This document shows positions 5,673-48,084 of a DNA stretch of 64,000 bases, piece after piece. Location of the stretch: the NCBI GenBank assembly GCA_039714115.1, contig JBDLJY010000001.1:1749-65748 (forward strand). Reading direction: 5' to 3'. Position 1 is the stretch's first letter; each line of letters opens with the position of its first letter. Both the position numbers and the translations under genes were made by a program. Below the pieces are notes generated by a model that saw only the letters and a program-made list of their open reading frames with translations, searched no databases and was not told the origin of the DNA. The stretch comes from Pseudomonadota bacterium. Its GTDB lineage: Bacteria > Pseudomonadota > Gammaproteobacteria > Beggiatoales > Beggiatoaceae.

Positions 5673-5709
5673 TGCCATTAAGTGAGAAATCCTATTTTTA
5701 CGGTATTTT

Positions 5710-7999: not shown

Positions 8000-8950
8000 C
8001 TACAATTCAATCGCATGTTTTTTTATTCGATACAACAAAGTATCCCGTGTCAAGCCGAGTAGCCGCGCCGCTTGACTACGGTTGCCATAAGTTTTATGGA
8101 GAGCTTGGCGAATCATTTGGATTTCCAAAGCCTCCAGATTTATCCCCGTTTCCGGCAAATTAAATCCCTCCGCAGGCTGAAACCGTTTTTTAGAACCCGG
8201 ATGAAATTCACGGGGCAAGTGAGTTGGCTCAATGCTTTTTCCACTGAAAAAAATGAGCATGCGTTCACAAAAATTGCGTAATTGTCGAATATTGCCGGGC
8301 CATTTATAACGATGTAATTGTTTCAGCGTTGCCTTATTGTAATGTGGTGGAGAGAGATTGTGGCGCTCTGCTAATTGCTTGGTGAATGTGTGTAGTAGCA
8401 ATTCTAAATCGTCTAGGCGTTTGCGTAAGGGCGGCAATTCTAAAGGCACAATATTTAAACGGTAATATAAATCTTGCCGAAATTCGCCCCGTTGCGTTTG
8501 TGCATATAAATCGCGATTAGTTGCGGCGATGATGCGGGTGTTAACGTGTTCTACGCGGCTTTTACCGATGACTTGACATTCGCCAGTTTCTAAAAAACGT
8601 AACAATTTGGCTTGAATGGAAAGCGGTAATTCTCCGATTTCATCTAAAAAGAGTGTGCCGCCATTGGCGGCTTGTATGCGCCCTTGTTGATCAGCAACGG
8701 CACCAGTAAAAGCCCCTTTACGGTGTCCAAATAATTCAGATTCCGCCAAACTTTCCGGTAAGGCGGCACAATTAATAGTAATAAAAGCACCTTGCGCTCT
8801 GGGGCTATGTTGATGAATGCTTTGTGCTAAGAGTTCTTTACCGGTACCACTTTCACCTTCGATGAGTACTGTCACATCTGTCATGGCAACGATGCGAGCG
8901 GCGCGGATGACGGTACAAAATTCTCCTGATTTGCCTAGTAAGTTTGACAT
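8000..8950 (-). CDS. Sigma-54-dependent transcriptional activator, AAA+ and Fis-type HTH only (PspF-like, no sensory domain)
   Basis: 316 aa. Walker A GESGTGKE, GAFTGA loop, Walker B LFLDEIGE, C-terminal HTH GNRSQAARLLGLTRDTLLYRIKKH. Confidence 0.85.
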   Translation of the reverse strand: MSNLLGKSGEFCTVIRAARIVAMTDVTVLIEGESGTGKELLAQSIHQHSPRAQGAFITINCAALPESLAESELFGHRKGAFTGAVADQQGRIQAANGGTLFLDEIGELPLSIQAKLLRFLETGECQVIGKSRVEHVNTRIIAATNRDLYAQTQRGEFRQDLYYRLNIVPLELPPLRKRLDDLELLLHTFTKQLAERHNLSPPHYNKATLKQLHRYKWPGNIRQLRNFCERMLIFFSGKSIEPTHLPREFHPGSKKRFQPAEGFNLPETGINLEALEIQMIRQALHKTYGNRSQAARLLGLTRDTLLYRIKKHAIEL

Positions 8951-9088
8951 TGGATTTTAGTAATGGTTCGCAGAGCGATTTATCGCCTATTTATAGTGAA
9001 GTGTTATATAACATAAAAATAGATCAAATCACATACCCCACTCACACTAAAATTTAGTATCTCATTGATAATTAATATTTTTATTGAT

Positions 9089-9104
9089 TGGTACAAAAAA
9101 TGCC
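9089..9104 (+). promoter_or_regulatory. Candidate sigma-54 (-24/-12) promoter TGGTACAAAAAATGCC
   Basis: GG and GC elements have the spacing of the consensus TGGCAC-N5-TTGC. It lies about 40 bp upstream of the receptor ATG at 9144 and next to the divergent sigma-54 activator gene. Confidence 0.5.
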
Positions 9105-9143
9105 TACGAGACTGTTCATTTTAATAATGATCTAACAGACAAT

Positions 9144-29791: not shown

Positions 29792-32700
29792 ATGTGCAAT
29801 GACATCGAATCTATTGAGTCGGCGGTGCCGGAACAGATATGTGCCCAACTGACACTTTCCACAGAAGATTTATCAGCCGCCCTTTTAGCTTGTGTATCAC
29901 TAGAAAATGATGATCCGGCCATCTTAGAATTTAGTGAAAACTACATCAATCAAGTACTGGATATCAGGGAGTCAGCCAAAATGGCGGGCTTGAGTGGATT
30001 GCAAGTAGTCTGCACATTTGTCAATAACAATTGGAAGGCTTTTATTATTCAGGATAAAGACCAAAAAGTTGCCTTCCAATCCTATTTTGAACAATGGCCT
30101 GCGAAAGTTTTAGAATATTTGCAAAAACAGAGTGAGGGTGCCGGACGCATAGTGAGCTTTATGCAAGACGCTGGCTGGCCTGTACCTTTAAAAGCAGAGG
30201 CGGCAAATCATTTATTGACTCTGCTGACCACCAAAGCCGCTGAGCCGACACCGGAACCTGTCTCTGAGACACCTTTGATCGCGCCGGACGTATTGGAATC
30301 GATATGTGCCCAACTGAAGGATTCTACAGATGAATTATCATCCGCTCTTTCAGCTTGTGTCTCACTAGAAAATGATGATCTGGCCCGGTTAGAAATCAGT
30401 GAAAACTATACCAATCAAGTAGAGGCTCTTTGGGAGGCAGCCGAAATGGCCGACTTGAGTGGATTGCAAGAAGTCTGCACATTTTTCATTGAGAATTGGA
30501 TGGCCTTCAGTCTTCAGGAGAAAGACCAAAAAGTTGCCATCCAATCCTATTTTGAACAATGGCCTGCGAAAGTTTTAGAATATTTGCAAGAACCGAGTGA
30601 GGGTGCTACCCGCTTAGTGAGCTTTATGCAAGACGCTGGCTGGCCGGCACCTTTAGAGGTTGAGGCGGCAAATCATTTATTGATTCAGCTGACCACCAAA
30701 GCCGCTGAGCCGACCGAGGATCAAGTCTCTGAGACACCTTTGATCGCGCCGGACGTATTGGAATTGATATGTACCCAACTGAAGGATTCTACAGAGGATT
30801 TATCATCCGCTCTTTCAGCTTGTGTCTCACTAGAAAATGATGATCCGGCCATCTTAGAAATCAGTGAAAACTATACCAATCAAGTAGAGGCTCTTTGGGA
30901 GGCTGCCGAAATGGCGGGCTTGAGTGGATTGCAAGAAGTCTGCACATTTGTCAATGAGAATTGGATGGCCTTCAGTCTTCAGGAGAAAGACCAAAAAGTT
31001 GCCATCCAATCCTATTTTGAACAATGGCCTGCGAAAGTTTTAGAATATTTGCAAGAACCGAGTGAGGGTGCTACCCGCCTAGTGAGCTTTATGCAAGACG
31101 CTGGCTGGCCTGTACCTTTAGAAGCAGAGGCGGCAAATCATTTATTGACTATGCTGACCACCAAAGCCGCTGAGCCGACCGAGGAGACACCTGTCGCCTT
31201 ACCGAATGAAGAGCCGATAGGGGGTGAGGACGTTGATACGCAAAGTTTAAATATTGAGCCAAAAAGCCCTCCTTCTAAGACGCAGCAGGACAATGAAGAT
31301 GATGATAAAATAAAAATATCGTTAGATCATGAACTTTTAGAAATGCTCCGTAGTGAGCTTGAGTCTGCCAAGGAAGAATTGGCAACGAAACTCAATAAAT
31401 TTAGCTCGCTTGCCAATGCAGATGTGGCGCTTGTAGAAGCGTCAGAAAATTATACTGAAATTGTGCAAAATTTATCTAGGGCTTCAAGCTTGGTGCGTTT
31501 TGAAGGATTGCAAACTGTTTGTGCTTTTATTATATCGAATGTAAGCGCCCTGAGTGTTGCAAATACAGAAGCCAGAGCGGAAGCAAAAAAACTTTTAGAA
31601 GCGTGGCCTGGTTTGGTGTTAGCTTATCTGCACACACCAAACGACAGTGTGATTCCAATGGTGAATCACTTCCGTGATCCTCAATGGGCAAAACCCTTAA
31701 GCGATGATAAAGCCCATAGCTTATTGAATCAAGTGATAGAGGTTTCACGTCCTAATAAGCAAAAACCAAAACGTCCCCCCCCCCAGCCAGAAGACGTACA
31801 AATATATATTCCAGAGGATATTGTTCCTGAACTTTGGGATGCCTACTTACAAGAAACACCCGATAATGTGGCTCAGTTTTCTGCTATTATTCAAGAAATT
31901 ATTCAGAATCCTGAAACGAGTCAAATTAAAGAGGCCCAGCGTCTCGCGCATAGCTTGAAGGGTTCATCGAATATTATCGGTATCAAAGCTATTGCCAACA
32001 TTGCCCATCCTCTTGAAGATTCATTGGAATATCTTGCCACTCATCATCTTGTTCCCCCCAAAGCATTGACTGATATGATGGTGGGGGCTGCTGATTGTCT
32101 GGAGAACATGGTTGAAACCCTATCAAGTGCTCAACCTGAAACGCCGCCGGAAGCCCTGTCTGTTTTACAATCAGTGGTGGATTGGGCGAATCGTATTGAC
32201 GAGGGTGATATGGATGCCCTGCCCATTGATGAAACTAACACAAAAACTTTTGCCTCGACAGCCCCCAAGCCAACGGTGACTGCCGCTGGCACACCAGAGC
32301 CGGTTTTGAAGGTGCCAACTACGACAATTGACGAATTAATGCGCTTAGTGGGTGAGTTGTCTATTTCGGTGGGGCAAATTCAAGAAAAATTGAAGCATCT
32401 GATGCTGAGTACGCACAGTTTGTCTGATCAAAATTTAATTCTTCAGCAGAGGACGTTTGATCTGGAAGAACTGGTGGATGTGCGTGGTGTCACGGGGGTA
32501 GAAAGACGCTATCAAAAAACGGCAGAAATTAAAGAGTACCCTGAGGATGAGTTTGATCCGCTGGAATTTGAAGAGTACAACGAGTTACATAGCGTGGCGC
32601 ATAGTTTTATTGAGTCTATTGCGGACAATCGTGAACTGGGGATGTCGATACGTGATGATCTCATTGAATTGGAAACGATGTTTGTTCACCAAGAGCGATT

Positions 32701-34141
32701 AAATAAAGATTTCCAAACGAACATTATGAAGTCGCGCATGGTGTCGGTGAATAATCTCGTTGCTAAGTTGCAGCGTAATGTTCGACAGACGTGTCGCATG
32801 ACGGGTAAACAAGCTGAACTCGTCCTCAGCGGTACGGATGTTTTGATTGACAGCGATGTTTTGAATAATCTGGCGGATCCCTTGCAGCATATTTTGCGTA
32901 ACGCGATTGATCATGGGATAGAAAAAGATGCTAAGGAACGAACTCTTCAAGGAAAACCCAAAGCTGGCCAAATTCAATTGAGTTTTTACCGCGAAGGCAA
33001 TAACGTTGTTGTGAAGTGTGAGGATGATGGGCAAGGCTTGAATTATAACAAGATTCGTGAGACGGCTATTCAACGTGAATTAATCACTGAGAATCAGGAG
33101 CAGACCAAACAAGAACTAGCTCGTTTAATCCTGCTCTCAGGTTTCTCGACTAAACCGGGCGTAACGCAAGTTTCAGGGCGCGGGGTTGGCATGGATGTGG
33201 TGCATTCCAATATTAGTCAGATGAAAGGGATTCTTGATTTGACTTCAGAAACGGGCAAGGGTACGACGATTTTGATTAAGTTGCCTATGACGTTGGTGAC
33301 TGTGCATGTGTTATTGGTGCGTATTGGAAAACGCAAGTTTGGGATTCCTACTAATTATCTGGAACAAGCGCTAGCGCCGGGTGTGAGTGAGATTAATAAG
33401 GTTGGTAATGAAATATCCTTAAAAATAGATAAAAACATGTATGCTCTGAAATATTTGGCGAATTTACTGAATGTGCCGGGGGATATGTTAGATATTAAGG
33501 AAGAGGAAAGCTATCCTGTCATTTTGGCGCATGAAGAAACGAGTATAACTGCCGTCATCGTAGACGAATTTTTAGATACTCATGATCTCGTTATGAAGAG
33601 CATGGGCAAGCATGTTCGGAATATTCATGGTGTGGCGGGTGCTTCCATTCTTGGTGATGGTAGTTTGGTGCCATTGTTAGATTTGCCTGATTTGTTGCGC
33701 TCACCCATGCAGGCTGTGAGGTCGTCTTATCAGGCAGCGCATCAGGCTGAGGAGGCGGTGTCAGGCGGAATCCCTCGTATTTTGATTGTTGATGATTCTT
33801 TCAGCGTGAGAAAAGCGACGTCGTTGTTAATTGAAAATGCTGGTTTTGAAACCTTGTTGGCGAAAGATGGGGTAGAGGCGATTGAAATTATGAATCAAGA
33901 GCAGCCCGATGTGATGTTGACAGATATGGAAATGCCGCGTATGGATGGTTTTGAACTGACGGCTTATGTCCGTGCCAATCAAGCCACTCAAAAACTGCCC
34001 GTTTTTATGATTACCTCGCACTCAAGAAAGATATATCGTGAGCAAGCAAAAGCGGCGGGGGTTGACGTTTATCTAACAAAGCCCTATCAAGATAGTGATT
34101 TGTTAAATTTGATTGAGCAAGCATTGCAAAATAATAACTGA
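29792..34141 (+). CDS. Hybrid CheA-type histidine kinase (ChpA-like): repeated Hpt-like modules, one canonical Hpt, kinase, CheW-like and receiver domains
   Basis: 1449 aa. Hpt AHSLKGSSNIIG, HATPase DHGIE..GRGVGMDVV, C-terminal REC ILIVDDS..MLTDMEMPRMDG..KP. Confidence 0.9.
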   Translation: MCNDIESIESAVPEQICAQLTLSTEDLSAALLACVSLENDDPAILEFSENYINQVLDIRESAKMAGLSGLQVVCTFVNNNWKAFIIQDKDQKVAFQSYFEQWPAKVLEYLQKQSEGAGRIVSFMQDAGWPVPLKAEAANHLLTLLTTKAAEPTPEPVSETPLIAPDVLESICAQLKDSTDELSSALSACVSLENDDLARLEISENYTNQVEALWEAAEMADLSGLQEVCTFFIENWMAFSLQEKDQKVAIQSYFEQWPAKVLEYLQEPSEGATRLVSFMQDAGWPAPLEVEAANHLLIQLTTKAAEPTEDQVSETPLIAPDVLELICTQLKDSTEDLSSALSACVSLENDDPAILEISENYTNQVEALWEAAEMAGLSGLQEVCTFVNENWMAFSLQEKDQKVAIQSYFEQWPAKVLEYLQEPSEGATRLVSFMQDAGWPVPLEAEAANHLLTMLTTKAAEPTEETPVALPNEEPIGGEDVDTQSLNIEPKSPPSKTQQDNEDDDKIKISLDHELLEMLRSELESAKEELATKLNKFSSLANADVALVEASENYTEIVQNLSRASSLVRFEGLQTVCAFIISNVSALSVANTEARAEAKKLLEAWPGLVLAYLHTPNDSVIPMVNHFRDPQWAKPLSDDKAHSLLNQVIEVSRPNKQKPKRPPPQPEDVQIYIPEDIVPELWDAYLQETPDNVAQFSAIIQEIIQNPETSQIKEAQRLAHSLKGSSNIIGIKAIANIAHPLEDSLEYLATHHLVPPKALTDMMVGAADCLENMVETLSSAQPETPPEALSVLQSVVDWANRIDEGDMDALPIDETNTKTFASTAPKPTVTAAGTPEPVLKVPTTTIDELMRLVGELSISVGQIQEKLKHLMLSTHSLSDQNLILQQRTFDLEELVDVRGVTGVERRYQKTAEIKEYPEDEFDPLEFEEYNELHSVAHSFIESIADNRELGMSIRDDLIELETMFVHQERLNKDFQTNIMKSRMVSVNNLVAKLQRNVRQTCRMTGKQAELVLSGTDVLIDSDVLNNLADPLQHILRNAIDHGIEKDAKERTLQGKPKAGQIQLSFYREGNNVVVKCEDDGQGLNYNKIRETAIQRELITENQEQTKQELARLILLSGFSTKPGVTQVSGRGVGMDVVHSNISQMKGILDLTSETGKGTTILIKLPMTLVTVHVLLVRIGKRKFGIPTNYLEQALAPGVSEINKVGNEISLKIDKNMYALKYLANLLNVPGDMLDIKEEESYPVILAHEETSITAVIVDEFLDTHDLVMKSMGKHVRNIHGVAGASILGDGSLVPLLDLPDLLRSPMQAVRSSYQAAHQAEEAVSGGIPRILIVDDSFSVRKATSLLIENAGFETLLAKDGVEAIEIMNQEQPDVMLTDMEMPRMDGFELTAYVRANQATQKLPVFMITSHSRKIYREQAKAAGVDVYLTKPYQDSDLLNLIEQALQNNN
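29837..31190 (+). repeat. In-frame tandem repeat, 3 units of about 465 bp, inside the CheA-type gene
   Basis: Units start at ATATGTGCCCAACTGA (29837, 30302) and ATATGTACCCAACTGA (30767). Units 2 and 3 are nearly identical. Confidence 0.9.
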
Positions 34142-34589: not shown

Positions 34590-35071
34590 GTGAAGATGCA
34601 AAAAGTAGTCGGGCGTGGTTATTAGATTTTGGTGGCGGTTTACAAGCCGCCATCGGATACCACGAAATGTGGCAAGCGCTTGTCTCGCCAACTTTGTTTA
34701 AGGTACCTTGTACGCCACACTACTGTAGCGAAGTCTTGATTTTTCAAAAGGAGATATTGCCGGTGCTTGATATGTCTTCTCTGTTAGAAAGAGATAAAAT
34801 CAGCCCTTTGATGAGTCAAGTGGTAGGGATTGCGGTTTACCAAGAAGTGCCCACTTTGCCTATCCGTTATGCTTGCTTGCGTTTGGCAAGCATGCCAAAG
34901 GGTATTTTTGTGAGTGATGATCAAGCTTGTGATTTGCTAGCCGATCAATTTTATTGGAAACCTTTGGCATTGTCCAGTTTTTCCCGCGATGATGTTGTTA
35001 TTCCTATTATCGATCTGGCTTATCTGTTTTCAGAAGATTTTAATGCTTTTAAACAAGGTTCTCTGGTATGA
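34586..35071 (+). CDS. CheW-like domain protein (ChpC-like)
   Basis: 161 aa. VPCTPHYCSEVLIFQKEILPVLDMSSLL and C-terminal VVIPIIDLAYLF fit the CheW pattern. Overlaps its neighbours by 4 bp on both sides. Confidence 0.65.
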   Translation: MSEDAKSSRAWLLDFGGGLQAAIGYHEMWQALVSPTLFKVPCTPHYCSEVLIFQKEILPVLDMSSLLERDKISPLMSQVVGIAVYQEVPTLPIRYACLRLASMPKGIFVSDDQACDLLADQFYWKPLALSSFSRDDVVIPIIDLAYLFSEDFNAFKQGSLV

Positions 35072-36333
35072 ATAATCTTGAGGTATTTCAGCCTGAATTC
35101 CGGCTACAACAGGTATCTCTCCAAAACTTTAGGGGGTTTGAACACCTAGAATTTTATTTTAAATCGGATTTAGCCGTTTTTATAGGGGAAAATGGGGCTG
35201 GAAAAACGAGCCTTTTGGAGGGGATTGCTAAGTTATTAATTGCTTTTGAAAATCAATTCAGGGGTGAGGATAGCCGCGATTTTAAAGATTTAAAAACAGT
35301 TTTTGATTTTTTTGATATCAGAAAAGGTAGCGTTGAATCTATTAATAGGATGTTCTTATCTTTCGCGGATCATGATTTAAATTGTGAGATTATTTTTCGA
35401 AAAAAATCTGCCCCTGTTTTAGGACAATGCAATTTTGAGGGTTTAAATGAATTTGTCCGTCTCTTTTATAGTTATAAACCGTTTAATCTCCCTTTGTTGG
35501 TTTATTATCCTGTTAGTAATGCTCCCGTTAATTATATTGATTTTGAAGAAGCCAGTAATGATTTTGAGATTGATAGTTTTACGGCTTTAGATGGTGCTTT
35601 GGATAATTCTTTTGATTTAATCCGCTTTTTCAGTTGGTATAAGTGGCAGCAAAACATTGAAAGGCAATTAGGCGAAAATAAAGTTTTGAATGTGGTGCGC
35701 CGTGTCATTTATAAGATGTTGAGCGATGAGCATAATAGATTCGATAAGTTATCTATCAATTGGGTTAAGAATCCTAATGGTGAAATGCTCATTCATAAAA
35801 ATGATTTATGTTTAAATATTAATCAACTTTCTTCGGGTGAAAAAATGCTTTTGGCTTTAGTGGCTGATCTTGCGCGTCGTTTAGCCCTTGCTAATCCATA
35901 CCGAGAAAATCCGTTGTTAGGTAACGGGGTTGTTTTGATTGATGAAATGGATTTGCATTTGCATCCGCGCCGGCAACGTGAGGTGATTCCTCAATTGCAA
36001 GAGACTTTTCCAAATTGTCAGTTTATTGTGACTACCCATTCTCCGCTGATTTTGAGCAATTTGCGGCGCGATAATGTGATTATTTTGGAGGATTTCAAAA
36101 CAGTCAAAAAGACGCCGCATACTTTTGGTAGAGATAATAATTCTATTTTATATGAATTAATGGGGGTTAAACAGCGTCCTGATGATGTCCAACAACAAAT
36201 TGACCAAGTTTATGAATTGATTGATGATGGAAATAAGGACGAAGCACAAGCCTTATTAAGGGAGCTATCCGAGCATTTGGGTGAAAATGATATTGCGATA
36301 GTCAAAGCTTATACACATTTGGCTTTTTTTTAA
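35068..36333 (+). CDS. AAA_15/AAA_21-type ATPase, Septu PtuA-like
   Basis: 421 aa. Walker A GENGAGKTSLLEGI, signature LSSGEKMLLALVADLARR, Walker B VLIDEMDLHLHP, VTTHSPLI. ATGA overlap with the upstream CheW-like gene. Confidence 0.75.
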   Translation: MNNLEVFQPEFRLQQVSLQNFRGFEHLEFYFKSDLAVFIGENGAGKTSLLEGIAKLLIAFENQFRGEDSRDFKDLKTVFDFFDIRKGSVESINRMFLSFADHDLNCEIIFRKKSAPVLGQCNFEGLNEFVRLFYSYKPFNLPLLVYYPVSNAPVNYIDFEEASNDFEIDSFTALDGALDNSFDLIRFFSWYKWQQNIERQLGENKVLNVVRRVIYKMLSDEHNRFDKLSINWVKNPNGEMLIHKNDLCLNINQLSSGEKMLLALVADLARRLALANPYRENPLLGNGVVLIDEMDLHLHPRRQREVIPQLQETFPNCQFIVTTHSPLILSNLRRDNVIILEDFKTVKKTPHTFGRDNNSILYELMGVKQRPDDVQQQIDQVYELIDDGNKDEAQALLRELSEHLGENDIAIVKAYTHLAFF

Positions 36334-39522: not shown

Positions 39523-40520
39523 TTAAGTATAAGGATAAGTTTCTGACTCGTAGTAAGACTTTCCTGCGAGAGGGTTTTGATAAGGGCTGGTTTTGACCAT
39601 GCCATACCAATGTATGCTTTGATTATCAGCAATAAAGTCCGATGACTTTCTTTCGGTTTTTGTGAAATATTTCCCTTTTACCCAGCCTGAGCCCTTATTT
39701 GGGTGTCTGCGTTTGGACCATTTCCACAATTTTTCCCATAGCCAATAATCTAGCTTAGAGAATGTCTCACGGGATGTGACATGTTGGTATTCATGAGTCC
39801 ATGCTCTGATAATCGGGTTTAGTCTTCTAATAAGGGCTTCTTGTGGCGCCGCTTTCATTTTGTCGAAAACTTCCCGTATAGCGTCCCGGTGTTTCTTTAT
39901 GGCACTTGCTGATGGTCTTATATTTAGGAATTCTTTTTGCTTATATTTAGGAATTCTTTTTGGTATTTGCCCTGCGAGATGAGTTGCCTCTTGTAGTGAG
40001 CATTAATCCTTCTCTCCGCGTAGAATTGGATATTGTAAGTCAGAAAATCAAAGCCTTCTGTTGATTGTACCACTTGAGTATTGACTTCTGTTAACCCCCT
40101 GTCACCTAACCATTTTTTGAGCAGTTCTTGGCATTGTAAGATTATCTGGTTATCCTCATGAATAACGAGAATGTCACAGCTGTATCGAATCACTTTTAAG
40201 GTGCTGGCATCGGAAAATCCTGTTTCGATTTCTGCTTTCAAATATCTTTCCATGCCATCCAACACTATGTTGGCTATTAGTGGACTGATTATTCCATATT
40301 GCGGGGTGGTTGTTGGATCTAAGTGCCGGTCATCCATATAACCCGCCTTATAAATCCGCTTTTGGAGATTGAAGACTAGCCATTCAATTCTTCTCCAATC
40401 GTCGTCGGAGAGGGTATTCAAATCATTCTGAAATTCTGTCTGCACTTCGTTGGGTTCCAGTTGGCACAAAGCAAGCTTTTCGCTTGAATAAAAAAAACTT
40501 ATGGGATATTTGGAGTCCAA
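39523..40520 (-). pseudogene. Degenerate group II intron-encoded RT/maturase gene
   Basis: Two ORF fragments. The upstream one has LQKRIYKA joined directly to ..QYGIISPLIANIVLDGMERYL and YSCDILVI in place of YADD. The downstream one has the maturase motif RRLNPIIRAWTHEYQH. A 23-bp tandem duplication at 39917-39962 breaks the frame, and no domain V lies downstream. Confidence 0.8.
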
Positions 40521-40656: not shown

Positions 40657-43600
40657 ATGCAATACGCAGAACTCATTCACTTTGAAAATTTAGAGCCTGT
40701 TATCCAGCTCCGCCATGCTGATCTGTCGGCTAAGGTAAAACGCTTAATAACAACCTATGTCATTTCAGAAGAAATGGCTGCAAAATTGATTCATTCTGTC
40801 TTTGAACAACTCAGTTTTGATCATAAGACGGATAAAAAAGGTTTGTTTATCGTGGGCAATTATGGCACCGGTAAATCGCATCTCATGGCTGTCATTTCGA
40901 GTATCGCAGAAAATGCTGATTTATTGGAATATTTAAGCCATCAACAAGTTGCTAAAGCCGCCAAACCTAGCATTGCTGGCAAATTCCATGTTATACGTGT
41001 GGAAATGAGTGCCGTTGAACGTTCTCTACGCGATTGTCTCACGGCTGAAATTGAGGCTTATCTTGGTAGCATCAATGTCAGTTTCCATTTTCCGCCGGCT
41101 AACCAAATTACTAATAATAAGGGTGCATTTGAAAAGATGATGGCTGCTTTTGAGGCGCATTGTCCAGGGCAAGGTTTGTTGATCGTCGTTGATGAGTTAT
41201 TGGAGTTTTTAAGTAGTCGAAAAGATCGAGAACTCATTCTCGACTTGAGCTTTCTCCGCGAAATCGGCGAAGTTTGTCAAGATTTACGCTTTCGCTTTAT
41301 CGCTGGTTTACAGGAGACTGTTTTTGATAATCCGCGCTTTAAATTTGCCGCTAATGAGTTGCGTCGCGTTAAAGATCGTTTTGAACAGGTGCTGATTACG
41401 CGCAAAGATATTAAATTTGTCGTAGCTGAGCGGCTGCTGAAAAAAAATGCTCAACAAAAGGATAAAATCCGCGCCTATTTGCAGCCCTTTGCTAAATTTT
41501 ACGGCTCTATGAATGAGCGCTTGGATGAGTTTGTCGAACTTTTTCCGGTACATCCTGACTATATTGAGATTTTTGAGCGGATTATCGCTGTCGAACAGCG
41601 CGAAATCTTGAAAACCTTAGAACGCGCTATGCAAACTTTGCTGGTTCAACAGGTGCCCGCTACTTATCCCAATTTGCTCGCCTATGATAGTTATTGGAAT
41701 ACTCTCCGCGAAAATTTCTCCTTTCGTGCCACCGACGAGATTCGAGAAGTCATTAATTGTAGCCAAGTTTTAGAAGATCGCATCGCCAGCGCTTTCACGC
41801 GCCCGAATTATAGGGCAATGGCATTGCGGATTATTCACGCCCTCTCTGTGCATCGGCTCACCACACCTGATTTTTATACCCCCGTCGGTGTCACTGCGCG
41901 GGAACTTTTGGACAATTTATGTTTGTATCAGCCGGGTATTGAGGATTTAGGTAATCCCGCTGATGATTTGCTGTCTCAAGTTGAATTAGTTTTGCATGAG
42001 ATTTTAAAAACGGTTAATCGGCAATTTATTTCTGCAAATCCGCATAATGGGCAGTATTATCTTGATCTTAAAAAGACGGAGGATTTTGATGCTATTATCG
42101 AAAACCGCGCAGAAATTGTTGAGGATAACGAACTTGATCGTTATTATTATGTGGCACTCAGGCAGGTGATGGAACTCACAGACGAGCCTTATGTGGGGAA
42201 TTTTCTTATCTGGCAACATGAACTAGAATGGCTTAGCCATAAAGTCACTCGCCAAGGCTATTTGTTTTTTGGTACGCCCAATGAGCGGGCTACGGCGGTG
42301 CCGTCACGGGATTTTTATCTCTATTTGTTACAGCCTTATGATCCGCCTAAATATAAGAAAAATGCGTCTACGGCGGATGAAGTCTTTTTTCGCCTCATAG
42401 AAAAAGATGATGATTTTGTGCAAAGCTTACGCAATTTTACTGCCGCTTCTATTTTAGTCTTGAATTCTTCGGGACATCCGAAGTCGGTGTATGATTCTAA
42501 GGCTAAGCTTTATCTCAATCAGTTAGTGGCATGGCTACAAGCGCATCTCACGGATGCTTTTGAAGTCACTTATCAAAACCGCACAAAGCCTTTGTTAGAT
42601 TGGACAAAGGGTAAAAATGTCCGCGAAATGGCTGGGCTTGGCACGGATGCGCGTTTCAATTTTCGTGAATTGATAGAATTGGTGGCAAGCATTTGTTTGG
42701 AAAGTTATTTTTCTGATAATGCTCCTGAGTATCCAGTTTTTACGACGCTGATCACTGGCGAAAACTTGAGCCAAGCTGCTCAAGATGCTTTGCGTGGTAT
42801 CGCTAGCAAAAAACGTTCTAAACAAGCTAATAGTATTTTAGATGCTTTGCAATTATTGGAGGGAGAAGATTTCAAACCGTTAAAGGCGCAATATGCTACT
42901 GATATTCTCAATTTGCTGCATAAAAAACCGCAAGGGCAAGTGCTGAATCGGGGTGAATTGCTCCCCGAATATTATTTTGCTCCTGAAAAGTACCGCCTTG
43001 AGCCAGAATTTGTCATCGTCTTGGTGGCTGCTCTTGTTTTTGCTGGAGAAGTGGTACTCGCTTTACCGGGGCAAAAGTTGGATGCTTCAAATTTTGCGCG
43101 ACTCGCTGAAACGCCGATTAAGGATTTATTGGCTTTTAAACACATCGAGCGTCCTAAGGATTTTAATGTGCCGGCGTTAAAAGCTTTATTTGAGCTGTTA
43201 GGTTTACCCAGCGAATTGGCGATTAGTCTGACACAAAATGATGATGGGGCGGTGCATCAATTACGCAGTCAAGTTAATAAGCGCTTAGAAAGCTTAGTCA
43301 AAGCCTTGGATGAGTTAGTCAATGGCATTATATTTTGGGGGAAAGCGGTGCTGACTGAGGCGGATATCGAAATTTATCGAGGGCGGCTGTCAGAGTGTAA
43401 ACATTTTTTAGAAACGTTGCACTCTTATGCTACGCCTGCTCATTTCAAAAATTTTCGCTATACGGCTGAGGAAGTCTCGGCACAATTGGGGGGGGTTGAG
43501 ACTTTAGATGAAATCAGTCAGTTGCAGAGCATCCTCCAAGATTTGAATACGGCGACGGCTTTTTTGATGACGGCGGAAGTGGTGTTACCGCCAGATCATG

Positions 43601-44373
43601 TTTGGGTTGTTGAGATGAAAAAGGTGCGTGATAGTCTGTTGCCGCGCTTGATGGATAAGACGCAACGGGCGAGTAGTGGTTTTAGTTACCACACGCAACA
43701 AGAATTGGGTGCTTTACAAAAAGACTATCGGCAAATTTATCTTGATTTACACCAAGAGGCGAAATTAGGGGCGACTGAGAGTGAGGAGAAAAAACAGTTG
43801 TTGCAGGATGCTCGCTTGGCTCAGTTGAAAAATTTGGCTAAAATTGATTTGATGCCTCGACAACAATTGGAGGATTGGGAGGCGCGTCTGAATCAATTGG
43901 CGAGTTGTTTTGATTTGAATGAGTATGATTTATTTGTTCATGCGTTTTGTCCGCATTGCGAATTTAAGCCGTCTTCAGAATTGCAAGAGCCGGCTGCTGA
44001 TAAGCTGGCGGAGTTCAGCGAGAGCTTGGAACAATTCTATGGTGCTTGGACACAAATATTGTTGACGGAGTTAAAAGGGGTTGCTGATTCGGAACAATGG
44101 GGTTTACTCCAGGCGAAAAACCGCCGTTTGTTGGATAAATTTTTGAGTGAGAAAGTGCTGCCGGAGGAGATTAGTTTGGAATTTCTGGAGGCGGTGCGAG
44201 AGGCTTTGACGGGTTTGGAAAAGGTATGCTTTAATTTCAATGATTTGCAAAGTGCCATCGCGAGGGGTGGCTTTCCGGTGACGCTGCTAGAATTGCAGGT
44301 GCGGATTGAGCGCTATTTGCGGAAAATCACGAAGGATAAAGATGGGCATAATGTTCGGATTGTTTTAGAGTAA
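40657..44373 (+). CDS. Large (1238 aa) P-loop NTPase of unknown function, possibly DUF6079-like / BREX-type large ATPase class
   Basis: Walker A GNYGTGKSHLMAV and Walker B LLIVVDELLEFL in the N-terminal ~250 aa, followed by a long helical remainder and CPHCEF near the C-terminus. The family assignment is from memory only. Confidence 0.85.
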   Translation: MQYAELIHFENLEPVIQLRHADLSAKVKRLITTYVISEEMAAKLIHSVFEQLSFDHKTDKKGLFIVGNYGTGKSHLMAVISSIAENADLLEYLSHQQVAKAAKPSIAGKFHVIRVEMSAVERSLRDCLTAEIEAYLGSINVSFHFPPANQITNNKGAFEKMMAAFEAHCPGQGLLIVVDELLEFLSSRKDRELILDLSFLREIGEVCQDLRFRFIAGLQETVFDNPRFKFAANELRRVKDRFEQVLITRKDIKFVVAERLLKKNAQQKDKIRAYLQPFAKFYGSMNERLDEFVELFPVHPDYIEIFERIIAVEQREILKTLERAMQTLLVQQVPATYPNLLAYDSYWNTLRENFSFRATDEIREVINCSQVLEDRIASAFTRPNYRAMALRIIHALSVHRLTTPDFYTPVGVTARELLDNLCLYQPGIEDLGNPADDLLSQVELVLHEILKTVNRQFISANPHNGQYYLDLKKTEDFDAIIENRAEIVEDNELDRYYYVALRQVMELTDEPYVGNFLIWQHELEWLSHKVTRQGYLFFGTPNERATAVPSRDFYLYLLQPYDPPKYKKNASTADEVFFRLIEKDDDFVQSLRNFTAASILVLNSSGHPKSVYDSKAKLYLNQLVAWLQAHLTDAFEVTYQNRTKPLLDWTKGKNVREMAGLGTDARFNFRELIELVASICLESYFSDNAPEYPVFTTLITGENLSQAAQDALRGIASKKRSKQANSILDALQLLEGEDFKPLKAQYATDILNLLHKKPQGQVLNRGELLPEYYFAPEKYRLEPEFVIVLVAALVFAGEVVLALPGQKLDASNFARLAETPIKDLLAFKHIERPKDFNVPALKALFELLGLPSELAISLTQNDDGAVHQLRSQVNKRLESLVKALDELVNGIIFWGKAVLTEADIEIYRGRLSECKHFLETLHSYATPAHFKNFRYTAEEVSAQLGGVETLDEISQLQSILQDLNTATAFLMTAEVVLPPDHVWVVEMKKVRDSLLPRLMDKTQRASSGFSYHTQQELGALQKDYRQIYLDLHQEAKLGATESEEKKQLLQDARLAQLKNLAKIDLMPRQQLEDWEARLNQLASCFDLNEYDLFVHAFCPHCEFKPSSELQEPAADKLAEFSESLEQFYGAWTQILLTELKGVADSEQWGLLQAKNRRLLDKFLSEKVLPEEISLEFLEAVREALTGLEKVCFNFNDLQSAIARGGFPVTLLELQVRIERYLRKITKDKDGHNVRIVLE

Positions 44374-44380
44374 CGGCTTT

Positions 44381-44412
44381 GGAGTGCCCGCCCAAGATAA
44401 ATCTTGGACTCC
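44381..44412. repeat. REP-like unit directly after the NTPase gene
   Basis: GGAGTGCCCGCCCAAGATAAATCTTGGACTCC. Confidence 0.85.
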
Positions 44413-44432: not shown

Positions 44433-44466
44433 AAAAAATCCGATTTTTTCAAAAAATCGGATTTTT
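44433..44466. repeat. Palindrome AAAAAATCCGATTTTTT-C-AAAAAATCGGATTTTT (bidirectional terminator-like)
   Basis: Read directly. The same motif occurs twice inside the MITE at 54495-54707. Confidence 0.85.
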
Positions 44467-44474
44467 CACGACTG

Positions 44475-44585
44475 CTATGGGGATTTCCGCCCTCCTGCAC
44501 TAGAAAGTGAATAAACGACTAATCCGACGAAAACGACGATATTTACAGCTATGACAAGTGCGGGTACAAACAATAATTCTGACAT
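44475..44585 (-). CDS. Small hydrophobic peptide, 36 aa (paralog 1)
   Basis: MSELLFVPALVIAVNIVVFVGLVVYSLSSAGGRKSP. GAGGAA SD 6 nt upstream. Shares the core P-A-x-x-I-A-V-N-I-x-x-x-V-G-x-V-V-Y-S-L-S/T-S with the two paralogs. Below the ORF-track cutoff. Confidence 0.55.
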   Translation of the reverse strand: MSELLFVPALVIAVNIVVFVGLVVYSLSSAGGRKSP

Positions 44586-44620
44586 GATTCGTTCCTCAAA
44601 ATGATGAAAATTAATGCAAA

Positions 44621-44660
44621 CCAAAAAGCTCGCCGCTCAAAACTTCGAGAGAGCGACGGC
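44621..44660 (-). terminator. Hairpin plus T5 downstream of peptide gene 2
   Basis: Minus strand GCCGTCGCTC-loop-GAGCGGCGAGC-TTTTTGG (imperfect stem). Confidence 0.5.
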
Positions 44661-44666
44661 TAATAA

Positions 44667-44828
44667 TCAAACGGCCTTACCTTCAGTATGGTAAAAACTT
44701 TCTCTTATCCCACTAGTAAGTGAGTAAACAACGATACCAACGAGAGCGAGAATGTTTACAGCTATGATAACTGCGGGAGCAAATATGACACCCAAGACAA
44801 CTAGAGGAACTAATAGTGCTTTTAACAT
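44667..44828 (-). CDS. Small hydrophobic peptide, 53 aa (paralog 2)
   Basis: MLKALLVPLVVLGVIFAPAVIIAVNILALVGIVVYSLTSGIRESFYHTEGKAV. AGGAGA SD upstream. Confidence 0.6.
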   Translation of the reverse strand: MLKALLVPLVVLGVIFAPAVIIAVNILALVGIVVYSLTSGIRESFYHTEGKAV

Positions 44829-44953
44829 GATTCAATTCTCCTAATGAATGAAAATAATAAAACTCCAATCGCAATATAATTATATTATTATTTTATAATA
44901 TACTAATATACAAAATGACTAACTATCGGACATTGGAACAGAGATATCTTAAA

Positions 44954-44987
44954 GCCCGCAGATCAAAACATCGAGATATCTGCGGGG
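44954..44987 (-). terminator. Hairpin downstream of peptide gene 3
   Basis: Minus strand CCCCGCAGAT-loop-ATCTGCGGGC followed by TTTAA (weak T-run). Confidence 0.4.
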
Positions 44988-45010
44988 TTGTGGCAAACAC
45001 ATCATATTGT

Positions 45011-45181
45011 TTAGACTGCCTTACCCTCCGTATGGTAAAAATGACCAAAACTTTCTCTTATCCCACTAGAAAGTGAGTAAACAACGATACCAACGAGAGC
45101 GAGAATGTTTACAGCTATGATAACTGCGGGAGCAAATATGACACCTAAAACAACTAGAGGAACTAATAGTACTTTTAACAT
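45011..45181 (-). CDS. Small hydrophobic peptide, 56 aa (paralog 3)
   Basis: MLKVLLVPLVVLGVIFAPAVIIAVNILALVGIVVYSLSSGIRESFGHFYHTEGKAV. GAGGA SD upstream. Nearly identical to paralog 2. Confidence 0.6.
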   Translation of the reverse strand: MLKVLLVPLVVLGVIFAPAVIIAVNILALVGIVVYSLSSGIRESFGHFYHTEGKAV

Positions 45182-45275
45182 GACTCAATCCTCATAAAAT
45201 GATGAAAGTTAATGCAAACTTTATGCCAAAAAGCCCTTGGGGCACACCCAGCCTTGTTGGCGTAAATAACATTAC

Positions 45276-45776
45276 AATATTATAAACTAACAATATTATT
45301 AGTTGCTGATACTTAATCCACAGGCTGTCAGACAGTCGGAGCTGGGAAATGATTGTGTCCATCGCCAGCCCATAAGCAAAACTAAAAAAAAAAAGACTAA
45401 TATTCAAATAGCCATGCTCAGATTATGGACATAGATAATAATATTGTCAAGCTTTTTGTGGAATTTTTGGGCTAAAAACGTATTAACTACTTGAAAAAAA
45501 AACATTTTTTTTTTACAGTTGTTTTTAGTTACAACTGATAACTGATAACTGATAACACGCTACCACAAAATGATACAGTGGCAGATTATATGCCTAAAAT
45601 CAAATTTAACAAGGCAAACAAAGTAAAAAAACGTGATTTCTTACTTTGTTGAAAGCAGTATCAAGTAATAAACTCACACAGTTATATAGGAATCAGACGA
45701 ATGGTCGTTTATATCCGACAAACGGTTCTAGACCTAAAAAAAAGGGACAAGTCTAATAAATAATCGCTTACAATAT
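45276..45776. repeat. Mosaic repeat, full copy A (~0.5 kb)
   Basis: Aligns along its length with 46084-46568. Contains an A11 tract (45383-45393) and 3 CTGATAA heptamers (45535-45555). Confidence 0.9.
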
Positions 45777-46083
45777 ATTATATAGCCATATACTAACTAA
45801 ATGACTAACTATCTGACATTGGAACGGAGCTATTTTAAAGCTCGCAGATCAAAACATCTCCAGACCATAAGCAAAACTAAAAAAAAAAGACTAATAATAA
45901 AATAGCCATGCTCATAGTATTGACATAGACAATAATATTGTCAAGTTTTTTTTGGTTAAAAACATATTAACTACTTGAAAAAACACAGTTTTTTAAGTAA
46001 CAAAAAAACATTCTACAACTAATAACTCATAACTGATAACACGCAACCACAAAATGATACCGTCAATTGATAGACATGTTTAG
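45777..46083. repeat. Mosaic repeat, partial/recombinant copy B
   Basis: It starts with a segment matching 44922-44990 (AAATGACTAACTATC.GACATTGGAAC.GAG) and continues into the CATAAGCAAAACTA-A10-GACTAAT part of the repeat. Its heptamers are degenerate (46016-46040). Confidence 0.8.
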
Positions 46084-46568
46084 AATATTATAAACTAATA
46101 ATGTTATTAGTTGCTGATACTTAATCCACAGATTGTCAGCCAGTCGGAGCTGGGAAATGATTGTGTCCATCGCCAGCCCATAAGCAAAACTAAAAAAAAA
46201 GACTAATATTCAAATAGCCATGCTCAGATTATGGACATAGATAATAATATTGTCAAGCTTTTTGTGGAAATTTTTGGCTAAAAACCTATTAACTACTTGA
46301 AAAAAAAACATTTTATTTTTAATTGTTTTTTTTTTGTTACAACTGATAACTGATAACACGCAACCACAAAATGATACAGTGGCAGATTATATGCCTAAAA
46401 CCAAATTTAACAAGGCAAACAAAGTAAAAAAACGTGATTTGCTGAAAGCAATATCAACTAATAAACCCTCACAGTTAGATAGAAATCAGACGAATGGTCG
46501 TTTATATCCGACAAACGGTTCTAGACCTAAAAAAAGGGACAAGTCTAATAAATAATCGCTTACAATAT
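46084..46568. repeat. Mosaic repeat, full copy C
   Basis: As copy A, but with an A9 tract (46192-46200) and 2 heptamers (46342-46356). Confidence 0.9.
46391..46555 (+). CDS. Possible 54-aa lysine/arginine-rich small protein encoded in repeat copy C
   Basis: MPKTKFNKANKVKKRDLLKAISTNKPSQLDRNQTNGRLYPTNGSRPKKRDKSNK. The copy-A homolog is frameshifted by an 8-nt insertion. No clear SD. Confidence 0.3.
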   Translation: MPKTKFNKANKVKKRDLLKAISTNKPSQLDRNQTNGRLYPTNGSRPKKRDKSNK

Positions 46569-46712
46569 GGGACGCTGAAATCTCGACGAGAGCCCAAACA
46601 AACATACTACTAATAAAAATATTTTTTCCGATACTTGCATAATATTTCTCCGTTAATTAGAATGGCTTCCCGTGTTTGTCGCCCTTTAACCCTTAAATAG
46701 GAGGCAACCAAA

Positions 46713-46958
46713 ATGGCGGGCAAAATCAAAAAAATGATTGATACAATCATTGAACAAAGATCAAAGGGAAGTGGTATCATCGCCGGCACAATCAAAGTTA
46801 AATTAATTTTGAAAGGAATCAATCCTGATAACTTTAATCATCAATCCAATGATAACCCATTGATTATCAATCAACTCGACAAATTTGCCAAAGATTTTGG
46901 GGTGGATTTCGGTAGTAGCTTGTCAGAGAATGAAAAACGCTTTTCGATTTGGACTTAG
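46713..46958 (+). CDS. Hypothetical 81-aa protein
   Basis: AGGAGG SD upstream of the ATG. No family recognised. It ends 10 nt before the FIST gene start. Confidence 0.5.
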   Translation: MAGKIKKMIDTIIEQRSKGSGIIAGTIKVKLILKGINPDNFNHQSNDNPLIINQLDKFAKDFGVDFGSSLSENEKRFSIWT

Positions 46959-46968
46959 GAGAAAATCA

Positions 46969-48084
46969 GTGAATATCATCACCGCTGAAAGTACGAAAGA
47001 TATAATTGAAGACATTGTACCAGACATCAAGCTGCAAATTGGCGATTTTGATGCCAAAATGGTGCTCTTTTTTGCATCAGCAAAGTTTGATCCGGCTCAA
47101 ACGGCTGAAAAAATGCAACATGCTTTTGGAGAGAGCTTAGTTTTTGGATGCTCCACTGCCGGCGAAATCGTTTCGGGTCAAATGCTAAAAAATTCTGTGG
47201 TGGCAATGGCTTTCAATTCGGAAATAATTGGCGAGGCTAAAATCGAAGTCGTTGAAAACATTAAAGATGAAAGCGGAGTCAAAGGGATTGATAAAGCTTT
47301 TGCCGCTTTTGAAAACTACTTTGAAATGCCTATGCGAGCGCTGGATTTTCAAAATTATGTGGGAATTGCGCTCATCGACGGACTCAGCGGCGCTGAAGAA
47401 GGGTTAATGGATCGGATTGGCGATCTCACTAATGTGTTATTTGTGGGCGGCTCTGTTGGTGACGATTTGAAATTTGAAACTACTTATGTTTATGCCAATG
47501 GGAAAGTTTATACAAACGCTGCTTTACTCGTCTTAATTAAGCCGAAAGTTAATTTTGGTCTGCTCAAGACTCAAAGTTTTTGCCAATTGCCTCAAAAATT
47601 GGTGGCGACAAAGGTTAATGAATTTGAAAGGACGGTTATCGAATTTAATAATAAACCGGCTGTTGTTGCTTATGCTGAAGCCGTTGGTAGCTCTGTAGAA
47701 GAGGTTTCAAGTCGTTTTATGGTCAATCCTGTGGGATTGATGATAGATGATGAGCCTTATGTTCGCAGCCCTCAGCAGATAAAAGGCAATAATATGGTCT
47801 TTTATTGTAATGTTCTGGAAGGGATGGAACTGACTTTGCTTGAATCTGGAGATATTATTGGTGATACAAGGGTGGCTATCGAGGAAAAACAGAAAGAAAT
47901 GGGGTCGATTTCCGCGATTATCAATTTCCACTGTATTCTGAGAACATTAGAATTGGAAAAAAAGGGTTTAACGGGGAGTTACGGAGAAATATTTTCTGAT
48001 ATTCCTACGATTGGCTTTAGCACTTACGGCGAAGAATATATTGGGCATGTCAATCAGACGTCGACAATGTTGGTTTTTGAATAA
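46969..48084 (+). CDS. FIST-domain sensory protein
   Basis: FIST_N/FIST_C-like pattern (LVFGCSTAGEI.., GFSTYGEEYIGHVNQTSTMLVF). GTG 46969 behind AGGAGA is preferred over the TTG 46885 of the ORF track. Confidence 0.7.
   Translation: MNIITAESTKDIIEDIVPDIKLQIGDFDAKMVLFFASAKFDPAQTAEKMQHAFGESLVFGCSTAGEIVSGQMLKNSVVAMAFNSEIIGEAKIEVVENIKDESGVKGIDKAFAAFENYFEMPMRALDFQNYVGIALIDGLSGAEEGLMDRIGDLTNVLFVGGSVGDDLKFETTYVYANGKVYTNAALLVLIKPKVNFGLLKTQSFCQLPQKLVATKVNEFERTVIEFNNKPAVVAYAEAVGSSVEEVSSRFMVNPVGLMIDDEPYVRSPQQIKGNNMVFYCNVLEGMELTLLESGDIIGDTRVAIEEKQKEMGSISAIINFHCILRTLELEKKGLTGSYGEIFSDIPTIGFSTYGEEYIGHVNQTSTMLVFE

Follow-up and report, generated by a model that had tools for sequence, protein, structure and literature searches.

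Paired short and long genes for predicted small membrane proteins in giant sulfur bacteria and their linkage to sigma-54 activators

Are three tandem open reading frames (ORFs) of 36–56 codons genuine genes and, if so, what do they encode and how is their expression controlled? The question is raised by a 2.5-kb, ORF-poor and AT-rich gap (GC 0.29–0.36) in a 64-kb stretch of Beggiatoaceae DNA (contig JBDLJY010000001.1, hereafter the window), which lies between a 1238-aa gene (40657–44373, plus strand) and a gene for a FIST-domain protein (46885–48084, plus strand). An initial annotation, made from the sequence alone, had described three minus-strand mini-ORFs in the gap and suggested a duplicating locus for small membrane peptides, possibly resembling type I toxin-antitoxin (TA) systems. 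The ORFs were found at exactly the coordinates given there, and we refer to them as g1, g2 and g3. We think it probable that they encode oligomerizing small inner-membrane proteins, working as a short and long pair, whose synthesis is induced by a signal through sigma-54 and an enhancer-binding protein (bEBP).

g1, 44475–44585, minus strand: short-class mini-gene of 36 aa (MSELLFVPALVIAVNIVVFVGLVVYSLSSAGGRKSP), from the list of ORFs of at least 20 aa and a reading of the strand
g2, 44667–44828, minus strand: long-class mini-gene of 53 aa, from the ORF list
g3, 45011–45181, minus strand: long-class mini-gene of 56 aa (MLKVLLVPLVVLGVIFAPAVIIAVNILALVGIVVYSLSSGIRESFGHFYHTEGKAV), from the ORF list

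Each ORF has the signals expected of an expressed gene described by the initial annotation. Shine-Dalgarno (SD) sequences precede g1 (GAGGAA, 44597–44592), g2 (AGGAGA, 44842–44837) and g3 (GAGGA, 45193–45189) at the same distance of 6–8 nt from the ATG, and a hairpin follows each of the three genes, the one at g3 without a T tail:

g1 3' element, 44434–44466, either strand: perfect 16-bp palindrome (AAAAATCCGATTTTTT/AAAAAATCGGATTTTT) between g1 and the convergent 1238-aa gene, probably a bidirectional terminator
g2 intrinsic terminator, 44621–44660, minus strand: 10-bp GC-rich stem (44628–44660) with one bulge, followed by TTTTTGGTTT (TTTTTGG)
g3 3' hairpin, 44955–44986, minus strand: 9-bp stem (CCCGCAGAT/ATCTGCGGG) with a 14-nt loop and no T run, a candidate weak terminator or stabilizer

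The near-identity noted earlier for the two long genes was also borne out, as g2 and g3 share 96% identity outside a 3-codon in-frame indel (GHF). The g1 gene aligns with the second hydrophobic half of g2 and g3 (tblastn E ~1e-8).

The pattern of substitution in these ORFs is that of protein-coding genes. We estimated dN/dS from Nei-Gojobori counts, applied Fisher tests to synonymous versus non-synonymous changes and used a syntenic metagenome locus (L001, with L001–L005) as the reference for orthologue comparisons. Values of dN/dS were 0.08–0.5 across all close pairs and 0.08–0.39 between the window genes and their L001 orthologues. For g2 against g3 the ratio was 0.11, for g2 against gene A of L001 it was 0.14, and for g3 against g2 and the L001 orthologues it ranged from 0.11 to 0.39. 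Long and short paralogues, separated by dS of ~1 and dN of ~0.3, still gave 0.22–0.35. Changes were significantly biased to synonymous sites, a point on which the initial annotation had made its reading depend: g3 and g1 differ at 16 of 28 synonymous and 16 of 77 non-synonymous sites (Fisher p = 5e-4), and the bias also holds for g2 versus g3 (p = 0.004) and for a divergent paralogue pair in the related locus L010 (p = 2e-7). The g1 gene and its L001 orthologue are separated by four synonymous changes, one non-synonymous change and one in-frame codon indel, and every indel observed (GHF; one Phe) keeps the frame. This substitution pattern indicates that the three ORFs are real genes under purifying selection rather than chance ORFs.

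The peptides could not be placed in any described family, in agreement with the initial annotation. Searches of Pfam, NCBIfam, PHROGs and PADLOC with the peptides returned sub-threshold noise only, which in Pfam and NCBIfam at E <= 10 amounted to weak CcmD_alt matches (E 0.013–0.14), and a profile search of the PDB returned no matches. A match to a known housekeeping small protein, which the initial annotation had named as a refuting outcome, was therefore not found in these databases; the Pmp3/YqaE, DUF1328 and Flp pilin models, in particular, had no match in the Pfam scan at E <= 10. Like the family, the Flp/Fap pilins of Tad systems are hydrophobic proteins of 50–70 aa often encoded by tandem paralogues, but the family lacks their G/XXXXEY processing motif and a Pfam Flp_Fap match, and no tad genes lie nearby. 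Relatives were few in the protein collections, with about 20 clusters among billions of proteins. Searching 5.8 billion proteins with a single sequence recovered three clusters; with a profile, 1.84 billion representatives yielded 11 clusters at E < 1e-3, and two further profile searches of the 5.8 billion proteins gave 15 and 19 clusters, all with members of 36–56 aa. The named sources are limited to a Thiomargarita sp. metagenome-assembled genome (MAG; protein P0018), a Thiotrichaceae bacterium MAG (locus L007) and the window's own record, in which g3 alone among the three genes has an annotated NCBI protein (the identical MEN8214808.1, ABFS56_00200). A scan of 185,579 species-representative genomes yielded a single locus; the collections of plasmids, phages and viral contigs contained no family matches, nor did protein-pattern and degenerate DNA scans of metagenome contigs. 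Judged by sequence, the peptides thus constitute an undescribed family of small membrane proteins restricted to giant sulfur bacteria (Thiomargarita and Beggiatoaceae-type Thiotrichaceae).

The alignment of the family separates two classes. Long members have 51–56 aa and begin with MLK or MSELR, and short members have 36–38 aa, always begin with MSE and align with the second hydrophobic half of the long class. Both classes share near-invariant Pro18, Asn25 and Tyr35 residues (g3 numbering), in keeping with the shared core and the Asn inside its hydrophobic stretch that the initial annotation had recognized. Short and long genes lie side by side in five locus types, in the following orders:

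Window: long-long-short
L001–L005: long-long-short
L010–L012: short-long-long
L022/L023: short-long-short
L024–L026: short-long

The MSE class of g1 recurs in L010, L022 and L024. Because the two forms co-occur in five locus types, g1 is to be seen as a member of a conserved short partner class and not as a truncated copy; the earlier statement that it lacks the first hydrophobic segment holds, since it aligns with the second half only. We also identified more divergent, single-copy members in L013 (P0008) and L016 (P0014). The Joint Genome Institute (JGI) sample series of these two loci overlap those of L001, which suggests that one genome may carry several dispersed family loci.

The candidate regulatory features of the window are elements upstream of g3 and g1 and a regulatory gene located elsewhere:

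Sigma-54-type -24/-12 promoter, 45228–45213, minus strand: TGGCATaaagtTTGCA, ending 31 nt before the g3 ATG, with a predicted transcription start near 45202
g1 leader copy, 44598–44621, minus strand: TTTTTGG joined to TTTGCATTAATTTTCATCATTTT (TTTTTGG followed directly by TTTGCA), part of a 24-nt repeat
Distal sigma-70-like promoter, 45450–45422, minus strand: TTGACA-N17-CATAAT matching 11 of 12 consensus positions, inside the conserved block TTCCACAAAAAGC TTGACA...
bEBP gene, 8000–8950, minus strand: 316-aa protein with an AAA+ sigma-54 interaction domain and HTH_8 but no N-terminal sensor domain (Pfam Sigma54_activat, E = 8e-69)

The conserved leader that the initial annotation had reported for genes 1 and 3 is a real 24-nt repeat (44598–44621 and 45196–45219, 96% identity). 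At g3, its motifs mark it as part of a full sigma-54 -24/-12 promoter, which contains TTGCA. The g1 copy lacks the 7 nt that give the GG-N10-GC spacing and, for this reason, does not qualify as a sigma-54 promoter. The g3 element has the correct GG-N10-GC spacing and is the sole exact match to TGGCAYN5TTGCW on both strands of the window (0.29 expected). The L006 and L007 genes are preceded by the same element at distances of 35 and 39 nt, and the window and L006 copies keep 10 of 11 consensus positions while differing at four of the five spacer bases, a pattern expected of a functional promoter. The association extends to the rest of the family. Using a weighted sigma-54 motif score with a cut-off of at least 13/15, we scanned 282,630 positions and found 23 that reached it. 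Eight of these precede family genes on the correct strand and at no more than 320 nt (window g3, L006, L007, L008, L010, L016, L018 and L020). Hence, 8 of 11 first-gene upstream regions carry the motif versus 0.026 expected per region (binomial 3e-11), and the same test by independent lineages gives 5 of 8 (binomial 6e-7). The Thiomargarita locus L024 also has a perfect sigma-54 motif (TGGCACaagcaTTGCA). A sigma-54-like sequence (TGGCATTGACCTTGCA; L001 10563–10578, minus strand) was also observed 15 nt before the start codon of the L001 counterpart of the 1238-aa gene, and the copy in the window has no upstream motif of at least 13/15.

Sigma-54 promoters require an activator, and genes for such proteins (Sigma54_activat plus HTH_8) directly adjoin the mini-genes in four locus types. 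In L010 and L024–L026, an NtrC-type response regulator (Response_reg, Sigma54_activat and HTH_8) is encoded directly upstream of the mini-genes and is itself preceded by a cytochrome c gene. In L018/L019 and L020/L021, the adjoining gene is divergent and codes for a protein with PAS_4, Sigma54_activat and HTH_8 domains. Candidate binding sites for these activators are present in both arrangements: dyads lie upstream of the promoters in L020 (TGTCATAATTGACA) and, as related repeats, in L018, and TATCA...TGATA repeats precede the promoters in L010 and L024. The spacers between the three genes of L010 (33 and 39 nt) and between the two genes of L024 (62 nt) are short, suggesting co-transcription from a single upstream promoter. 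The only sigma-54 bEBP gene of the window (8000–8950) encodes a protein 43% identical to the core of the L018 and L020 activators; it is a candidate, and only that, for a trans-activator of the window mini-genes. It is divergent from a gene for a TonB-dependent receptor (9084–11168).

The peptides themselves are consistent with insertion in the cytoplasmic membrane. The uncharged core spans 29–38 aa in the window peptides (38 aa in their long form), the tails of which carry R, K, H, Y and E, and 32–40 aa in the long form across the family. C-terminal tails are polar and neutral to basic. All 16 long forms in alignment A6 carry K3 or R5, and all six short forms begin with MSE, placing Glu at position 3. 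The orientation of such proteins can be read from their charges by the positive-inside rule. By this rule, the basic residue at position 3 or 5 of the long form predicts a hairpin with both ends in, and Glu3 of the short form predicts an N-out/C-in orientation. The short form would be N-out/C-in, and the long form may be either a both-ends-in hairpin or one long tilted helix. The N-terminal segment of the long form was also considered as a signal peptide (A-P-A) and this reading was rejected: with V, F or N at -1 in several members, conservation of a cleavage site is unlikely.

These observations suggest a model in which expression would be set mainly at transcription initiation. A signal sensed by the bEBP (an NtrC-type response regulator or a PAS-domain bEBP in relatives) would turn the mini-genes on, and the peptides would then insert in the cytoplasmic membrane, the short form N-out/C-in and the long form as a hairpin or tilted helix. 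The intramembrane Asn would mediate the formation of homo- or hetero-oligomers, which could alter membrane permeability or energization or modulate a membrane complex. Such an arrangement resembles the phage-shock-protein (Psp) regulon of Enterobacteria (PspF, the sigma-54 pspA operon and pspG), which also combines small inner-membrane proteins, sigma-54 promoters and a dedicated bEBP often encoded next to, or divergently from, its target; furthermore, the bEBP in the window is PspF-like in lacking a sensor domain. The family differs from Psp in that its peptides are much shorter and form a short and long pair, have no similarity to PspB, PspC, PspD or PspG (Pfam and NCBIfam negative) and, in the relatives, are linked to activators with PAS or receiver domains, unlike PspF. 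The scanned ORFs of the window include no pspA gene, and no domain match supports the 'PspC' label that P0008 carries at JGI.

Several observations weigh against this model. No sigma-54 motif was found at g2, g1, any of the three L001 genes, L013 or the long gene of L022, and every promoter described here is a predicted motif match. The only bEBP gene of the window is unlinked to the mini-genes and 36 kb away, with none beside them. A -12-like half (TTTGCATTAA) is kept near the ATG without the GG at g1, L018, L020, L008 and L013; conservation of the segment from TTTGCATTAA to the SD even in these cases suggests that it may have a second, possibly post-transcriptional role. The sigma-70-like block, with its hexamers and 17-nt spacing, is also conserved in the window, L001, L006 and L022 (65 nt from the ATG in L022), so sigma-54 may be only one input. 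In the window it would give g3 a leader of ~235 nt. The g3 gene probably has two promoters, one sigma-54 and one sigma-70-like. Alternatively, the block at 45422–45450, which contains dyads, could be an enhancer (upstream activating sequence, UAS). A candidate dyad of the window, TTGACA-N13-TGTC(A/C)A, is found 200 nt upstream but fits a sigma-70 promoter equally. Lastly, where the model allows for a hairpin, AlphaFold2 (22-sequence alignment) predicts one continuous helix from residues 2 to 51 (mean pLDDT 82). The two-span hairpin that the initial annotation had proposed for g2 and g3 is, accordingly, uncertain, as it is matched by the charge pattern but not by the predicted structure or the 32–40 aa core.

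A more specific and far less probable form of the model has a redox, sulfide or oxygen signal acting through the sigma-54 activators to produce a regulated pore or ion leak, assembled from the two peptides through their Asn residues and specific to giant sulfur bacteria. If true, the peptides would be an activator-controlled, antitoxin-free analogue of membrane toxins and holins that resets energization in very large cells. To our knowledge, small membrane proteins are badly under-annotated, and next to nothing has been learned about them except in model organisms. Giant sulfur bacteria gain here a lineage-specific, multi-copy pair of mini-proteins with a regulatory handle (sigma-54 promoters and activators with PAS or receiver domains), sometimes encoded beside cytochrome c and sulfide dehydrogenase genes. 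The finding is concrete, though narrow in taxonomic range, and the family offers a testable way into the control of membrane physiology by signals in unculturable organisms.

Could the locus instead be a type I TA array, with membrane-depolarizing toxins restrained by cis- or trans-acting antisense small RNAs (sRNAs) and with leaders and duplications that reflect RNA control? We consider this unlikely. Searches for type I loci rely on criteria that include ORFs of fewer than 70 aa with a transmembrane (TM) stretch, a polar or aromatic C-terminus and tandem copies (Fozo et al., 2010, PMC2887945), and these heuristics describe the window locus well: its peptides are hydrophobic, 36–56 aa long, with a TM segment and a polar/aromatic tail, its tandem copies sit in a long intergenic region with similarity extending past the ORFs, and its taxonomic range is narrow. 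Type I loci with tandem copies (ldr/rdl, ibs/sib and zorO/orzO) share with the family hydrophobic, polar-tailed products of <60 aa, paralogues arranged in tandem within a long gap (PMC2887945), conserved untranslated flanks and a restricted phylogenetic distribution. Retention of the TTTGCATTAA...SD segment near the ATG even where a sigma-54 promoter is impossible is also in line with RNA control, and sigma-54 promoters, silent without an activator, would suit a toxic product. In addition, a 30-nt AT-rich stretch upstream of g2 (44877–44907) is 84–87% complementary to leader segments at 45271–45301 and 46080–46109.

That stretch is low-complexity, pure A/T sequence, however, and no other complementary sRNA-like unit was found in the 2.5-kb gap. 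Candidate antisense promoters are weak (9/12), are by-products of Met-Leu-Lys codons and are not conserved in L006. Rfam gave nothing credible, either for the 2.7-kb gap at E <= 10 or for 11 related loci at gathering score; a CRISPR-DR3 match (E = 0.09) in the AT-rich untranslated region (UTR) of L010 was dismissed. Synonymous divergence from L001 is 0.13–0.19 for the mini-genes, within the range of the flanking genes (0.24 for the 1238-aa gene and 0.12 for FIST), and gives no sign of an overlapping RNA constraining the ORFs. For the leaders of g3 and L006, minimum free energy (MFE) folding showed no gain in stability over shuffled sequences (z = -0.2 and 0.0), and a structured riboregulatory leader was rejected on these grounds. 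The T run preceding the sigma-54 motif was also considered as the end of a leader terminator or of an sRNA; this idea was dropped, as the small GC hairpin of g3 is not conserved in L006 or L007.

The relatives argue in the same direction. The genes of L010 and L024 are packed 33–62 nt apart behind one promoter and beside a dedicated protein activator, leaving no room for per-gene antitoxin units. Two peptide classes are co-conserved, unlike in known type I toxins, and the Pfam models for Hok, Ldr, Fst, TisB, Ibs, ShoB and TxpA had no match; the family has no homology to known toxin families and no antitoxin RNA was found at the window locus. The short spacers and protein activators of the relatives, together with the negative results at the locus, make the type I reading a minority position, and the initial suggestion of a TA-like locus received no positive support: we found no conserved antisense promoter, complementary sRNA, Rfam match or excess synonymous constraint. 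Over-production of the peptides could still prove harmful. The case is a warning against assuming type I toxins wherever small hydrophobic ORFs occur in tandem.

Another reading, which we regard as rather doubtful, is that the mini-genes are co-regulated with a respiratory or sulfur-oxidation complex and supply it with accessory subunits or a membrane anchor. In the Thiomargarita locus L024, the pair lies on one strand between the genes for cytochrome c and the response regulator-type bEBP, on one side, and those for a LolA-like protein, cytochrome c and flavocytochrome c sulfide dehydrogenase (FCSD), on the other. L010 has the same order of cytochrome c, response regulator-type bEBP and mini-genes, and in L006 the family lies between H+-pyrophosphatase and V-type ATPase genes. 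The neighbors otherwise differ: DUF6079 and FIST in the window, a nuclease in L007, MoxR/DUF58 in L013, an aminotransferase in L016 and HNH plus AAA proteins in L018. Furthermore, the mini-genes are usually convergent with their neighbors and have their own promoter and hairpin, and the bEBP is the only conserved partner gene. Small proteins that act by binding larger membrane proteins are well known in Enterobacteria, where MgrB, AcrZ, MgtS and KdpF are regulator-induced peptides of 30–60 aa with a single span or a hairpin. The family has no sequence relationship to them and no conserved partner is evident; it is also multi-copy and has two classes.

A partnership with the neighboring 1238-aa protein, as effector of a defense system, is very improbable. 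The initial annotation had the mini-genes converge on an orphan giant NTPase gene. The convergence is real, and the gene codes for a full-length DUF6079 protein matching the PADLOC BrxC-PglY ATPase (E = 0). The mini-genes converge on it in the window and in the syntenic L001–L005, and the window is rich in defense-type genes (PtuA-like ATPase, AAA_21 and caspase). DUF6079 is absent from the surroundings of the mini-genes in all nine other locus types, however, which makes the adjacency incidental; the convergent orientation with a terminator in between also speaks against a partnership, and no PADLOC model fits the peptides.

The last alternative, ORFs left open by chance in non-functional debris of a recently duplicated AT-rich repeat, draws on the wealth of recent duplications and gene-deleted units at the locus and on a 12-codon remnant of a long gene in L001, but it is hardly credible and is refuted by the substitution pattern, with its significant surplus of synonymous changes, frames maintained up to saturated dS over at least 10 divergent lineages and conserved Pro, Asn, Tyr and SD sites. 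The mosaic repeat block that the mini-genes were said to abut does exist, at 45272–46570, and contains three copies:

Repeat copy B, 45272–45776, minus strand: upstream regulatory block running into the g3 leader, 79% identical to L001 5023–5484
Repeat copy C, 45796–46063, minus strand: gene-deleted unit with a promoter variant (45944–45916) and ~30 nt of leader
Repeat copy A, 46080–46568, minus strand: orphan unit with TTGACA-N17-CATAAT at 46256–46228, the first ~120 nt of the leader and no ORF

In copy C, a GATG microhomology marks the junction between the ~30 nt of leader and the 3' half of a hairpin like that of g3; a copy of the 3' half of the g3 hairpin lies at 45796–45858. The L001 locus contains, immediately upstream of gene A, a 12-codon remnant of the long class with its own SD (MLKVLLVPLVFI, 5640–5675), which points to an internal deletion or duplication in the recent past. 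The orphan copies and this remnant suggest that the locus gains and loses units by recombination between repeats. By its sequence, the window locus is duplicated and partly decayed (two orphan promoter/leader copies), and the duplication of genes for small hydrophobic membrane peptides proposed initially is well supported.

The repeat block also contains a basic ORF (46334–46555, plus strand) that would encode 54 aa from an ATG at 46391 (MPKTKFNKANKVKKRD...), is preceded by TAACTGA repeats and is divergent from the orphan promoter. The ORF is intact in copy A alone and frameshifted in copy B (45542–45750) and in L001 (5056–5209, minus strand); it is probably a pseudogene or remnant. We rejected its reading as a divergent regulator or bEBP remnant on account of these frameshifts and the lack of bEBP similarity. 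Direct repeats of the TAACTGA heptamer gave eight double-unit matches in the window versus 0.03 expected. Three sets (45532–45552, 46023–46036 and 46340–46353, plus strand) are inside the repeat block, on the strand opposite to the mini-genes, and others are at 1006, 12678, 14914 and 29772. Such repeats are abundant in several marine Beggiatoaceae genomes, usually just before start codons (MacGregor, 2015, PMC4679880). Their presence in the window suggests that the host is probably a large sulfur bacterium. The same heptamer, read as (TTATCAG)n, was rejected as a locus-specific operator because it is genome-wide in Beggiatoaceae (PMC4679880).

Around the locus, we also noted an 81-aa ORF (46713–46958, plus strand) in overlap with the start annotated for the FIST gene; L001–L005 keep this ORF, which is called as a gene there and has no Pfam domain. 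Beside the DUF6079 gene no other BREX genes were recognized, and fragments of a group II intron reverse transcriptase and maturase (39523–40520, minus strand) lie just upstream. The defense-type genes of the window code for a caspase-domain protein (2897–4438) followed by an AAA_21 ATPase (4443–5672), and for a Septu PtuA-like ATPase (35068–36333). A 1449-aa protein (29792–34141) has weak PADLOC matches (PD-T4-6 and SduA/DUF4263) in its C-terminal ~130 aa. A palindrome resembling repetitive extragenic palindromic (REP) elements, GGAGTCCAAGAT(N)ATCTTGGACTCC, has 14 matches in the window with at most one mismatch versus 0.17 expected, one at 44401–44412 and 13 others (e.g., 5710, 5752, 11182, 14854, 21586, 40512 and 63406). 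The element is also present in L001, L006 and L013, lies mostly at gene ends, often in inverted pairs, and looks like a genome-wide intergenic repeat.

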